Part shown: piece after piece, positions 52,201 through 58,200 of the stretch
Layout of the letters: each line of letters starts with the position of its first letter
Numbering within the stretch: the first letter of the stretch is position 1
NCBI RefSeq assembly: GCF_058153355.1
Contig: NZ_CM177019.1
Length of the DNA stretch: 64,000 bases
Direction: 5' to 3' (one strand)
Made by a program: the position numbers

Positions 52201-55200
52201 ATACCGATGGTAACTGGTGCGGGCTTAACCGTGCCCGGCAACAGGGAGGCGATAAATTTGTTATTGGCGATGAAACGTGGCTGGTGATTGAGGTACCGGA
52301 AATCTGGCCTGACTGGACGAGGGTTATTGTATGCCTTCAGGTGTGACCCTCTCCGTTACGGAAAGCGCTCTTTATCAGGCCCTCGGTGATTATCTCCGGG
52401 GGCTTTTTTCTGATGCCGGGATTGAACGAACGCAGCAGAACCAGGTCCCGATGCCTCAGGGGAATTTCATCACCATGACGGGCATTGATGTTACCGGATT
52501 ATCCACTGCGGTAGTGGCATATTCTGCGCCAGCGCAGGCTGGTGAGGGCTCTCAGCATATCACCCGTACCACAAAATGGCGTTGCCAGCTTGATTTCTAC
52601 GGCCCTCACGCGGCAGATAACGCGCAGGTGCTGGCAACGCTTTTCCGGTCTGAATTTTCCGTACGGCTTTTCCGGCAGGGCGGTGGGCTGATTTCCCCGC
52701 TGTATTGCTCAGAGCCCTTTAACACCACATTCCCCAACGGTCAGCAACAGTATGAACCGCGCTGGACGCTTGATATTCAGATGCAGATTAACCCTGTGGT
52801 CACAACTTCCCTGATGTTTTTTGACAACGTGATCACCCGGACAACGGAGGCTGATAATGCCAATTCCACTCAGTAAAGATGTACAGATAAATCCCGGTGT
52901 GCTGGCTGTGGCGGGTAATGCCGTCGATCTTAACGGCCTGCTGTTGACCAGTAATCCGTTACTTCCGGTCGGCACTGTGGTTCCGTTTTCCTCTCCGGAT
53001 GATGTGGCCGCGTATTTTGGTGCATTATCCGATGAGTACGCACGCGCTCAGCTTTATTTCCAGGGCTTCAAAAATGCCACCAGGACGCCGGGGCAATTGT
53101 TGTTTTCCCGTTTCAGTCCTGCCCCATCGGCGGCCTGGTTACGTAGCGGTTCGTTTAAGGGCGCGACTGTTGAACAGCTACAAAAACTTTCCGGCACGCT
53201 GATGCTGAGTATTAACGGGAAAAGCGTCAGCATTGAAGTGAATTTTAACGGTGTCGCCAGCTTCGCCGCTGCTGCAACGGCACTACAGACAGCGCTGACC
53301 GCAGCAGTGGCTACAGTGGTATTCGATACCACACAGAATGCTTTTGTCATTACTGTCGCCGGGGCGAAACCCGAGAGTACCACGATAACGTTCGGCAGTG
53401 GATCGGCAGCAGAACTCCTGAAGATGACCAGTAACACCGGTGCGGTGATATCCCGGGGCGCGCCTGTATCTGATGTCCCTGACACAATGGCAGCCATTAA
53501 GGCCGCTTCCCAGCAATGGGCGGGTTTTTCCACGGTATCTGAGGTCACTGACGAGCAACACCTGGCGTTTTCTGCATGGGCAAACGGGCAGGGCAAGCGT
53601 TACTTTTATGTGGCATGGACAACCAGCGGCAACGCCAGAGTAAAAGGCAGTACTGAACACATCGCTTACCAGATAATTGCTGTCAATAACTACAGCTCTG
53701 TTGTACCTGTTTTCGCGACTGATGGTAACCGGGCTGCAGCGGTACTGGGGTATGCAGCGTGCCTTGATTTTGTCCGACCAGAGGGGCGTGTATCATTCAA
53801 GTTCCGCGAGTATGAGGGGCTGGCCGCTGATGTTACCAGTGGCAGCGATTATGATGCGCTGATCGCCGCAGGTTACAATTTCTACGGAAAATATGCGGAA
53901 AACAGTGTGGTGGAAGATTACTGGGCGGATGGCACTATTACCGGTGATTTTAAATGGCTGGACAGTTTCTGCGGGCAAATCTGGCTGAATGCCAGTTTGC
54001 AGGGGGCGGTGATCGCGTTATTCAAGTCAAACCAGACGATCCCCTACAACAATGAAGGGCGGGCGCTGGTTGCAGCGTCAATGAGTGACGTTATCCAGCA
54101 GTACAAACGCTGGGGAGGGATCCGTGAAGGGGTGACACTGACGGAGGCGCAGAAGAAACAGATTAACAATGTTGTGGGGGCAGATGTTTCTTCAACGTTG
54201 TTTGCCACCGGCTATTACCTGTATATCGGCGATATGCTTCCCTCTTTGCGGGCAACCCGTAGCAGTCCGTCCTGTACGCTCTGGTACTGTGACGGCGGTA
54301 GTATCCAGAAACTTGTTATTGCATCCACGGAGGTCCAGTAAATGTCGGGTAACAACAACACCATCACTGCGGCGGATGCCATTATCACGCTGACAGTGAA
54401 TAATCTGTATCCCTCCGGCGTACGACTTCAGGGATTTGCAACAGATAACGTTTATGGCACCGATCCACTGGTACTGGCGGAAACTGCCCGCGGTATTGAC
54501 GGTAAACTGTCCGCGGGATTTGTGTACAGCAACATTATCCAGACGTTTCATATCATGCCGGATTCCCCCAGCCGGGATATTTTTGATACCTGGTCAACCA
54601 CATCCCGGGCCAGTCGGGCTGTATTCCGTTGTAACGCTGTCGTCCTGCTTCCGGCGATTGGCCGTAAATATACCTGCGTGAATGGCGTACTCAAACAATG
54701 GAAAGCGCTGCCTGATGCAGCTCGTACGTTGCAGCCAGGGCAGGCGGTTATTGAGTGGGAAACCATTACTCCGGAGGTTTTTAACTGATGGCCCGTAAAG
54801 AGAAATTTATCACTATTGAAGGTCAGGGACGGGATAAGGGCAAGGTATTTCATCTTACCGAAATGTCTGCCTCACAGGCGGAATGGTGGGCGATGCGTGC
54901 CATTATGGCAATGGGGCGTGGTGGCGTGGAGTTACCGGATGATGTTCGTAGTCTGGGGATGGCTGCGCTTGCCCTTGAAGGGCTGAAAGCATTATCGAAA
55001 ATTCCGCCTGATGAGGCGCGTCCGTTGATGGATGAAATGATGGACTGTGTGCAGTTTGTTCCCGATCCGAAAAAACGCAGTATCCGGAGACCGCTTGTTG
55101 AAGAGGATATTGAAGAAATCATTACCCGTCTTAATCTGCGTGCGGAGGTCTTTAAGCTGCATGTGGATTTTTTCGCTACCGTCGTCAGCTAGATATCCCC

Positions 55201-58200
55201 CCGCGTTATCTCGACCCCGACAGACCGTTCGGGGTGGTGGATTACGTTAATGTTCCTCGTACCATTGCGACCGTTATCTCCTCCGGTAAGGCTTCAAAAG
55301 CTGAACTGGATTCTGTCCTTGGTGTGCAGGACTTATGGGATCTGCTGGAAATAATTCATGTGGATGCCCATAACGAACAGGTGATACAGGAGAACAGAAA
55401 TGGCGCAGGTACTTGATGAGCTTGTTCTGTCCCTCGGGATTGATGACAGGGACTTTACTGCCGGGGAACAGGCAGTACATGCTGCCCTTAACCGGCTCAC
55501 GACGGTGATGGAAGGTGTCGCTGACACATTCAGTCAGGGACAGAAGAAAACCAGTGAATCACTGGAAAAAACCGGAAAAGATGCTGATAAAACGGCCCGT
55601 CGAATGGAAGATGCCGGGAAACGGGCGTCCCGTTTTTTTTCAGGGATCCGTAGCGAGATTCTGGCTCTTGCGGGTGTCAGTCTGACGCTGGGGGGGCTGA
55701 AGAACCTGGTAACAGGTTTTGCCCGTGATCTGAACCGTCTGTCCGTGGAATCCGATGCTTTTGGCATGAAGGCCAGAAATCTGGACGGATGGTTACGGGC
55801 TGCGCGGGCAAATAATGTTGATGAAGGGGAAATGTCTGGGGCATTTTCCCGGCTTGCAAATGCAAAAGCGGCCTTCAGAGCCGGAAGGTCCTTTGATCCT
55901 GTGTTACAGGATTTGTTTCAGGTTGCAGCCAGGGCGGGCATTAGTGTTGATTTAAATACTGACAGCACTGAAGCCATCATGCGCAAGCTGGCGGTTATTT
56001 TTCCGCGACTGACAAAGTCCGAACAAACGTAAGCGTCTTATCAGGACCGTCTGGCAAATTCCCGATGCTTTGGACAAAGTATCCACCACTAAATTAATAG
56101 TGGGTGATAAAAATGTCAGATATACAAAAAAATGCCTCTCCGGGAAGGCCTAAAGGGTGCCTGAATTATCCTCCTGAATTCAAACAACGACTCATAGAAG
56201 CATCATTCCAGCCAGGTGTTTCAATTTCCAGACTGGCCCTGGACAATGGTATTAATGCCAATCTGTTGTTCAAATGGCGTCAGAAATGGCGGCAGGGGAA
56301 GATAAAATTGCCATCATCAGAATCAGGCAGAGAATCTCAGTTAATTCCTGTCACTATTGATGCCCAACTCCCAACTGCTCCGGCTAATGAGCCACTGACC
56401 GCAAGACCGTCAGTAACACCGGAAATACACAGCATCTCCTGTGAGATTACGTTCAGAAACGGCACCCTTCGGTTGAACGGGGCAGTGAATGAAAATCTGC
56501 TGTCCTTGCTTATACAGGAGCTGAGACGGTGATATCTCTCCCTGCAGGTTCGCGTATCTGGCTGGTTGCAGGTATCACCGATATGCGAAATGGCTTTAAC
56601 GGCCTGGCCTCAAAAGTTCAGAACGTCCTGAAGGATGACCCGTTCTCCGGACACCTGTTCATCTTCCGCGGACGCCGGGGTGACCAGATAAAAGTGCTGT
56701 GGGCTGACAGCGACGGACTGTGCCTCTTCACCAGACGCCTGGAACGGGGCCGCTTCGTCTGGCCGGTCACCCGTGACGGCAAGGTGCACCTTACTCCGGC
56801 CCAGTTATCCATGCTTCTTGAGGGCATCGACTGGAAACACCCGAAACGAACGGAACGCGCTGGCATCCGCATATAACCCGTTGTAAAGTGAGGATATGGA
56901 CACCTCACTTGCTCATGAGAATGCCCGCCTGCGGGCACTGTTGCAGACGCAACAGGACACCATCCGCCAGATGGCGAAATACAACCGCCTGCTCTCACAG
57001 CGGGTGGCGGCTTATGCTTCCGAAATCAACCGGCTGAAGGCGCTGGTTGCAAAACTGCAGCGCATGCAGTTCGGTAAAAGCTCAGAAAAACTTCGTGCAA
57101 AAACCGAACGGCAGATACAGGAAGCACAGGAGCGAATCAGCGCTCTTCAGGAAGAAATGGCGGAAACGCTGGGTGAGCAATATGACCCGGTACTGCCATC
57201 TCCCCTGCGCCAGTCTTCAGCCCGTAAACCGTTACCTGCCTCACTTCCCCGTGAAACCCGGGTCATCCGTCCGGAAGAGGAATGCTGCCCGGCCTGTGGT
57301 GGCGAACTCAGTTCTCTGGGATGTGATGTGTCAGAGCAACTGGAGCTTATCAGCAGCGCCTTTAAGGTTATCGAAACACAACGTCCGAAACTGGCCTGTT
57401 GCCGGTGCGACCATATCGTGCAGGCTCCGGTGCCTTCAAAACCCATTGCACGCAGTTATGCCGGAGCGGGGCTTCTGGCCCATGTTGTCGCTGGAAAATA
57501 TGCAGACCATCTGCCGTTATACCGCCAGTCAGAAATATACCGTCGTCAGGGCGTGGAGCTGAGCCGTGCCACACTGGGGCGCTGGACAGGTGCTGTTGCT
57601 GAACTGCTGGAACCGCTGTATGACATCCTGCGCCAGTATGTGCTGATGCCCGGTAAAGTCCATGCCGATGATATCCCCGTTCCGGTCCAGGAGCCGGGCA
57701 GCGGTAAAACAAGGACTGCCCGGCTGTGGGTCTACGTTCGTGATGACCGTAACGCCGGTTCGGAAATGCCTCCGGCGGTCTGGTTCGCGTACAGCCCGGA
57801 CCGGAAAGGTATCCATCCACAGAATCATCTGGCCGGTTACAGCGGAGTGCTTCAGGCCGATGCTTACGGTGGTTACCGGGCGTTGTACGAATCCGGCAGA
57901 ATAACGGAAGCCGCATGTATGGCTCATGCCCGGAGAAAAATCCACGATGTGCATGCAAGAGTGCCCACCGACATCACCACGGAAGCCCTGCAGCGTATCG
58001 GTGAACTGTATGCCATCGAGGCAGAGGTCCGGGGCTGTTCAGCAGAACAGCGTCTGGCGGCAAGAAAAGCCAGAGCCGCGCCACTGATGCAGTCACTGTA
58101 TGACTGGATACAGCAACAGATGAAAACACTGTCGCGTCACTCGGACACGGCAAAAGCGTTCGCATACCTGCTGAAACAGTGGGATGCACTGAACGTGTAC

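Follow-up and report, generated by a model that had tools for sequence, protein, structure and literature searches.

The programmed -1 ribosomal frameshift by which long-tailed phages make a short and a long form of a tail assembly chaperone has been a textbook phenomenon ever since the work of Levin et al. (1993) and Xu et al. (2004), both as cited in PMC5009743, and it serves as the main training case for frameshift predictors (PMC10274946). In phage lambda the two products, gpG and gpGT, are made at a ratio of 30:1, both are absent from virions and the arrangement is widely conserved among long-tailed double-stranded DNA phages; in P2-type phages the efficiency of the frameshift is 2-3 fold above that of lambda (PMC5009743). 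In Pakpunavirus and the related myoviruses of the Vandenendeviridae and Andersonviridae, where the two forms are called TAC-N and TAC-NC, the downstream open reading frame (ORF) is routinely annotated as hypothetical, every allele has an open -1 frame and a conserved poly-T slippery motif, GTTTTT, lies at the 3' end of TAC-N (PMC12846349). Here we describe a locus of this kind in an E. coli prophage carried on contig NZ_CM177019.1 (NCBI RefSeq assembly GCF_058153355.1), within a stretch of 64,000 nucleotides (nt) that was analysed as a whole and is referred to below as the window. A chaperone ORF immediately upstream of the tape-measure gene contains, close to its stop codon, the slippery heptamer T_TTT_TTC, and the -1 frame remains open from there into the start of the tape-measure gene. 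We consider it highly probable that this is a G/GT-type programmed -1 ribosomal frameshift that gives a short and a long chaperone.

The locus is partly like each of the described systems. As in lambda, the gene lies directly upstream of the tape measure and the -1 extension ends at the tape-measure start, and two products sharing an N-domain are predicted here from the sequence. Lambda differs in its heptamer, G_GGA_AAG, and in having a non-contractile tail, whereas the tail is contractile here; no sequence similarity between the two systems was detected (no Pfam, NCBIfam or PDB sequence match). Phage P2, which makes E and E+E', is likewise a contractile-tailed temperate enterobacterial phage with the chaperone pair between tube and tape measure. 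The P2 heptamer is T_TTT_TTG, which is one of the variants found in the chaperone family described here; P2 differs, however, in that its chaperone probably belongs to another protein family, and the present module is not P2-like, its sheath being of the DUF3383/phrog_205 type. The Pakpunavirus group offers the same situation and the same comparative argument in other phage lineages and protein families. Unlike that group, the family of the window has the full canonical heptamer in most members and two alternative heptamers at the same place. In the literature we found only general descriptions or descriptions for other families, and none of a frameshift for the family defined by phrog_1932 and phrog_3976; no database record among those examined joins the two ORFs, and the long form is missing from these records.

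The slippery site and the -1 frame

The zero-frame chaperone ORF (54788-55192, plus strand) encodes a short, G-like (TAC-N) form of 134 amino acids (aa), whose residues 1-131 match positions 1-131 of the 134 positions of phrog_1932 (E 3e-59). Its C-terminus reads KLHVDFFATVVS before the stop (...HVDFFATVVS), and the zero-frame bases 55166-55174 are GAT TTT TTC. The heptamer T_TTT_TTC (55168-55174, plus strand) lies here in the X_XXY_YYZ register, five sense codons (15 nt) upstream of the zero-frame TAG. Because a TAA at 55153-55155, 13 nt 5' of the heptamer on the same strand, closes the -1 frame upstream, the extension can be entered only at or after about 55156; from this point the -1 frame is open for 86 codons, up to a TGA at 55414-55416. 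The tape-measure ATG lies at 55400, behind a GGAG, and the extension overlaps the tape-measure ORF by 17 nt. The sequence-only reading that had proposed this frameshift gave the heptamer within the chaperone ORF in the right register and at its exact coordinates, and its -1 frame open from 55156 to 55416 and ending inside the start of the tape-measure gene was equally accurate.

A slip at the heptamer would give a product of 209 aa, with 129 residues from the zero frame and 80 from 55174-55413. The extension itself (55174-55416, plus strand; 80 codons and the TGA), which we take as the T-like (TAC-C) domain, matches phrog_3976 (E 5e-32), its residues 20-79 falling on positions 7-66 of the 67 positions of that profile. 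As phrog_3976 is a family of proteins of about 67 aa, with its function listed as unknown, the extension is evidently called as a separate gene by phage annotators.

As a control for chance, in-register heptamers were counted in 65 gene-like ORFs that do not overlap, together 18,428 codons of the window. The scan found 71, of which only four lie within the last 10 codons of their ORF. Behind the chaperone heptamer the -1 frame stays open for 80 codons, longer than for any other of the 71 (62 and 55 codons for the next two). A heptamer alone thus means little, and the chaperone site exceeds the chance expectation. The only further heptamers in the scan that precede a long open -1 run are TTTAAAC, with 62 codons, and CCCAAAT, with 54. 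Both occur in a minus-strand ORF at 18656-19438 and are probably due to chance, being some 180-190 codons away from its stop.

Conservation and the frame of selection

Relatives were collected by tblastn against GenBank phages and by a peptide-pattern scan of IMG/VR, which added 80 loci; the 89 related loci reduce to 58 distinct junctions, with chaperone identity down to about 36%. By tblastn the chaperone was found in 106 GenBank phages, which infect Acinetobacter (Obolenskvirus), Aeromonas (Popoffvirus), Edwardsiella, Burkholderia, Pseudomonas, Klebsiella and Pantoea, and a megablast of the locus against GenBank phages returned no match.

A canonical in-register heptamer is present at the homologous codons (about residues 127-129) in 55 of the 58 distinct junctions, either as T_TTT_TTC, T_TTT_TTA, T_TTT_TTG or T_TTT_TTT or, one codon upstream, as G_GGT_TTT. 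The -1 frame is open past the zero-frame stop in every one of the 58, for about 36-80 codons (about 70 codons where the zero-frame tail is short, 36-58 where it is longer), and the +1 frame has no comparable open pattern across the junctions. The conservation in homologues on which the earlier proposal had been made to depend was therefore found for both the heptamer and the -1 ORF.

The codons at the site differ from those used in the rest of the same genes. Asp directly before the run is encoded by GAT in each of 49 genes, compared with 57% GAT elsewhere in them, and the middle Phe codon is always TTT, compared with 38% elsewhere. In the G_GGT_TTT class, comprising twelve distinct genes, the codon in front of GGT may be one for V, S, E or L, but its last base is G in every case. 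At its seventh base, which tandem slippage leaves free, the heptamer varies among C, A, G and T. Since synonymous positions are fixed while the seventh base varies, these sequences indicate that selection at the site acts on slipperiness and not on the protein.

The frame under selection was followed in an ungapped nucleotide alignment of 56 distinct sequences anchored on the site, from the column entropy at each codon position. Upstream of the site, entropy is highest at third codon positions of the zero frame (1.55; the other two positions have 0.71 and 0.56), whereas third positions of the -1 frame become the most variable once the site is reached (1.43; 1.12 and 0.78 for the other two). 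The -1-frame third position is also the most variable 15-44 nt downstream (1.63, against 1.31 and 1.11), in a stretch that is annotated as intergenic in most loci. As judged from this pattern, purifying selection switches to the -1 frame at the site. The predicted peptides agree with the nucleotide data in their distribution: the -1 peptide directly after the slip, R-R-x-L-D-I-P-P, is conserved across the family and is followed by a variable linker and then by a conserved C-domain (Y-x-N-V-P-x-T-I-A-T-V-x-S...L-x-E-L...L-L-E-I), whereas the zero-frame tails are variable (ATVVS, TAAAS or longer Ser/Ala-rich tails).

In one relative, Burkholderia phage phiE058 (L003), the -1 frame happens to be open across the whole chaperone gene (from 1500). 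The -1 extension of this phage stops at 2111, and a gene recorded as a phage HNH homing endonuclease (2114-2605) separates it from the tape-measure-like gene.

The small ORF downstream of the chaperone

Annotation pipelines call a 60-aa ORF with a GTG start (55234-55416, plus strand) in the frame of the extension as a gene of its own, and in E. coli FDAARGOS_943 the Prokaryotic Genome Annotation Pipeline (PGAP) lists the chaperone and the 60-aa ORF as two 'hypothetical proteins'. The only candidate starts in the window, GTG 55234 and GTG 55237, have no Shine-Dalgarno (SD) sequence, and their pairing with the anti-SD is +0.4 and -2.2 kcal/mol, compared with -7.4 to -10.7 kcal/mol for the starts of the sheath, tube, chaperone and tape-measure genes. 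In 16 of 55 distinct extensions, the segment from the slip site to the conserved domain contains none of the start codons ATG, GTG and TTG, and 25 lack an ATG. Where an ATG exists an SD is usually missing, as it is for the ATG of the common linker motif PPVMG. The database gene calls for homologues of the small ORF range from 47 to 100 aa, and there is therefore no conserved start. Together with the -1-frame wobble, these features support the earlier suggestion that the 60-aa ORF belongs to the frameshift extension, as its C-terminal part, and is not an independent gene.

A natural in-frame fusion, which would be positive evidence that the two parts belong together, was absent from the matches listed in two protein searches; these comprise 120 chaperone homologues of 120-140 aa and 34 C-domain homologues of 47-100 aa. 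As no fused homologue is listed, we take the two-frame layout as a maintained state and not as an indel artefact or a pseudogene.

In many NCBI records of Salmonella, E. coli and Serratia, homologues of the small ORF (P0122, P0125-P0136 and others) carry the name 'transcription elongation factor GreA', which is present only as a label taken from the source record. We rejected a GreA identity, the extension having no NCBIfam match and the fusion no Pfam match; the name looks like a propagated misannotation of the chaperone C-domain.

Protein families and structure model

For neither domain did searches of Pfam, NCBIfam and PDB sequences (two profiles) yield a matching family. The 209-aa fusion was modelled with AlphaFold from an alignment of 27 conceptual fusions; the model is fairly confident, with a predicted local distance difference test score (pLDDT) of 81.2 and a predicted template modelling score (pTM) of 0.73. 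It predicts a mixed alpha/beta N-domain (residues 1-131), a low-confidence linker (about residues 132-155) and a helical C-domain (residues 158-206, pLDDT 83-90). In a Foldseek search against viral models, the fusion matched several proteins named tail assembly chaperone as well as proteins of 59-70 aa that match the C-domain only. The modelled N-domain matches the fold of the HK97 tail assembly chaperone (PDB 2OB9), with the B. subtilis prophage protein YqbN (3KLU) also listed; N15 GT was a non-significant fold match (E 1.0). This evidence from a model is modest, and it agrees with the PHROG name and the gene order.

The tail module and the state of the prophage

The order of genes in the window is sheath, tube, chaperone, small ORF and tape measure, as in E. 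coli FDAARGOS_943 and eight GenBank phages. The sheath gene (52857-54341, plus strand) encodes 494 aa matching phrog_205, tail sheath (E 2e-115), and PGAP names the identical E. coli protein DUF3383 domain-containing; as a sheath gene is present, the tail is contractile. The next gene (54342-54788, plus strand; 148 aa) matches phrog_1964, virion structural protein (E 1e-64), and its stop overlaps the chaperone ATG (54788). We take it as the tube gene because it is directly 3' of the sheath gene, a position that it keeps in all related phages. The records name this protein differently: for PGAP it is a 'phage tail fiber protein' (54342-54788; 4001-4447 in L001), and its PHROGs category is 'head and packaging: virion structural protein'. 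With this order, the PHROG matches, the conserved heptamer and the open -1 frame, the G/GT arrangement upstream of a tape-measure gene that had been read from the sequence alone is well founded.

The tape-measure (lytic tail protein) gene is interrupted. Its N-terminal 210 codons (55400-56032, plus strand) match positions 1-187 of the 657 positions of phrog_2013 as well as tape-measure PHROGs, and its C-terminal part (58498-59898, plus strand; 58579-59898 in the PHROG search), which contains a lytic transglycosylase domain and is colinear with the intact E. coli gene, matches positions 212-656 (E 3e-164). Between them lies an insertion sequence (IS) of the IS66 family (56029-58497, plus strand) with the termini GTAAGCG...CGCTTAC, flanked by an 8-bp target duplication, GAACAAAC, at 56021-56028 and 58498-58505. 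It carries tnpA (56104-56532), tnpB (56529-56876) and a transposase gene (56896-58467), identified by NCBIfam matches to IS66 TnpA, TnpB and the transposase (E 9e-144). This region of the window shares 99.8-99.9% identity with a prophage that is present in seven complete E. coli genomes, and in E. coli FDAARGOS_943, which carries the prophage at about 854-864 kb of NZ_CP065615.1, the tape-measure gene is intact (2022 nt). As the IS66-family element splits the tape-measure gene, the tail module of the prophage in this genome is probably defective. The frameshift system of this copy is probably a relic that is likely no longer useful; the signal is identical in the intact relatives.

The window region is rich in IS elements. 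An IS4-family element with a 448-aa transposase is present in two identical copies of 1427 bp (14585-16011 and 25213-26639), the second of which abuts a 5'-truncated second copy of the IS66-family element (26639-29001; 99.8% identical to 56136-58498). Upstream of the phage structural module, tRNA-Asn (GTT) and tRNA-Thr (TGT) genes lie 5 nt apart at 40691-40846.

Discussion

The explanation that we favour, a programmed -1 ribosomal frameshift at T_TTT_TTC, would work as follows. Most ribosomes would read 54788-55192 and make the 134-aa chaperone, while a minority would slip back by one base on the heptamer, the tRNA-Phe molecules on UUU and UUC re-pairing with UUU and UUU. The slipped ribosomes would then translate the -1 frame from 55174 until they reach the TGA at 55414-55416, which completes the 209-aa fusion, the last 80 residues of which would form a separate helical domain. 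By analogy with lambda gpG and gpGT, the shared N-domain may coat the tape-measure protein, and the rare C-domain may link the complex of chaperone and tape measure to tube subunits, so that tail polymerization starts correctly.

The same fusion, with one extra Phe, would also result if RNA polymerase added one U on the T6 run. Most members of the family have a run of 6-7 T at the site, one inserted base puts the downstream codons in the same -1 frame, and transcriptional and ribosomal slippage leave indistinguishable traces in a DNA sequence. However, productive slippage by bacterial RNA polymerase generally needs runs of about 8-9 or more, whereas the twelve distinct genes with G_GGT_TTT have only 4-5 T after a constant G, a pattern that fits tandem re-pairing of tRNAs; moreover, the codon register of the T run is invariant, which slippage on the transcript would not need. 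We therefore regard transcriptional slippage as very unlikely. A different possibility is that no slip takes place, the heptamer being incidental and the 60-aa ORF being translated from its own GTG. PGAP and most phage annotations do call the small ORF separately, and the linker of many relatives contains an ATG, as part of the motif PPVMG. Such a gene would nevertheless have to be started from GTGs without an SD in the window and without any start codon in 16 of the 55 loci (without ATG in 25), and its called length ranges over 47-100 aa. It also leaves the fixation of the heptamer at synonymous positions without a role, and the -1 protein conservation and wobble begin at the slip site, upstream of any candidate start; the separate gene is accordingly most improbable.

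It could also be argued that the two ORFs are one 209-aa gene whose reading frame is interrupted by an indel of 1 nt in the T run, either a sequencing error or a result of decay into a pseudogene. Homopolymer runs are prone to indels, and this prophage is already damaged by an IS in the next gene. The two-frame layout is, however, present in all 58 junctions, which come from independent phages, prophages and metagenomes, and also in the seven complete E. coli genomes with 99.8-99.9% identity, and no in-frame fused version is found among the listed homologues. We consider this explanation practically negligible.

Several observations weigh against the programmed frameshift or against its simplest form. 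The conservation counts, such as the 55 of 58 junctions with a canonical heptamer, treat the sequences without phylogenetic correction. Three relatives have no canonical heptamer, although the -1 frame is open and the extension conserved in all three: Klebsiella phage RCIP0114 (L006, about 1940-1960) has GCT TTT GTA at the site, and two IMG/VR contigs (L085 and L087, about 1875-1890) have GAT TTT TCN (TCC or TCG). The exact mechanism may thus not be uniform across the family, and the sequences of these three suggest a slip of a single tRNA-Phe on T_TTT. The downstream stem-loop or pseudoknot that the sequence-only reading had put forward for RNA folding did not appear: the structure predicted for the 123 nt from the heptamer is no better than that of dinucleotide shuffles (z -0.57), and neither is that of the 70 nt after the heptamer (z +0.35). 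On the upstream side, we rejected the GGAGG at 55144-55148 as a dnaX-like stimulator. Its distance from the heptamer is 19 nt, and many relatives have GAAGT in its place; in dnaX-type stimulation the optimal spacing between SD and heptamer is 10-14 nt.

The stable hairpin or pseudoknot 5-9 nt 3' of the heptamer that is part of the classical dnaX, IS or retroviral cassette was not found in the window. A local hairpin, ACCCCGA...UCGGGGU, begins about 40 nt after the site and was rejected because a classical stimulator would lie closer. The median fold z of 55 relatives is -0.9. Some relatives, most of them GC-rich (L003, L068, L073/L074, L083 and L084), have a stable hairpin 2-7 nt after the heptamer, with z of about -1.3 to -3.3. 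The GCCGNCG stretch, which codes for the conserved Arg-Arg in the -1 frame, forms its 5' arm. No such hairpin is present in the window or in most enterobacterial relatives. The hairpin may stimulate the slip in particular lineages, or it may result from GC content. A downstream structure is not, however, a defining feature of phage chaperone frameshifts. The lambda G/GT shift is not known to need a defined one, and for this reason the missing structure does not weigh against a frameshift at the present site.

In summary, the locus is an ordinary, unannotated case of the known tail-chaperone frameshift, and it leaves the understanding of frameshifting and of tail assembly unchanged. Its value lies mainly in annotation, as the C-domain ORF is called hypothetical or, wrongly, GreA, in a family that includes Acinetobacter and Klebsiella phages studied for therapy. 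The members of the family are prophages of Enterobacterales together with Acinetobacter Obolenskvirus, Aeromonas Popoffvirus and Edwardsiella, Burkholderia, Pseudomonas and Klebsiella myoviruses, and they provide a comparative series with two interchangeable heptamers, a free seventh base and three members with the T_TTT core only. This series is a natural data set on what a chaperone frameshift site needs. We propose tentatively, while leaning somewhat to the contrary, that the phrog_1932 and phrog_3976 family may use an undescribed and unannotated frameshift in which a minority of members may have exchanged the tandem-slip heptamer for a bare T_TTT. If this were true, slippage of one tRNA would suffice for making the long form of the chaperone, and the family would offer a natural series on how little slipperiness tail assembly needs.

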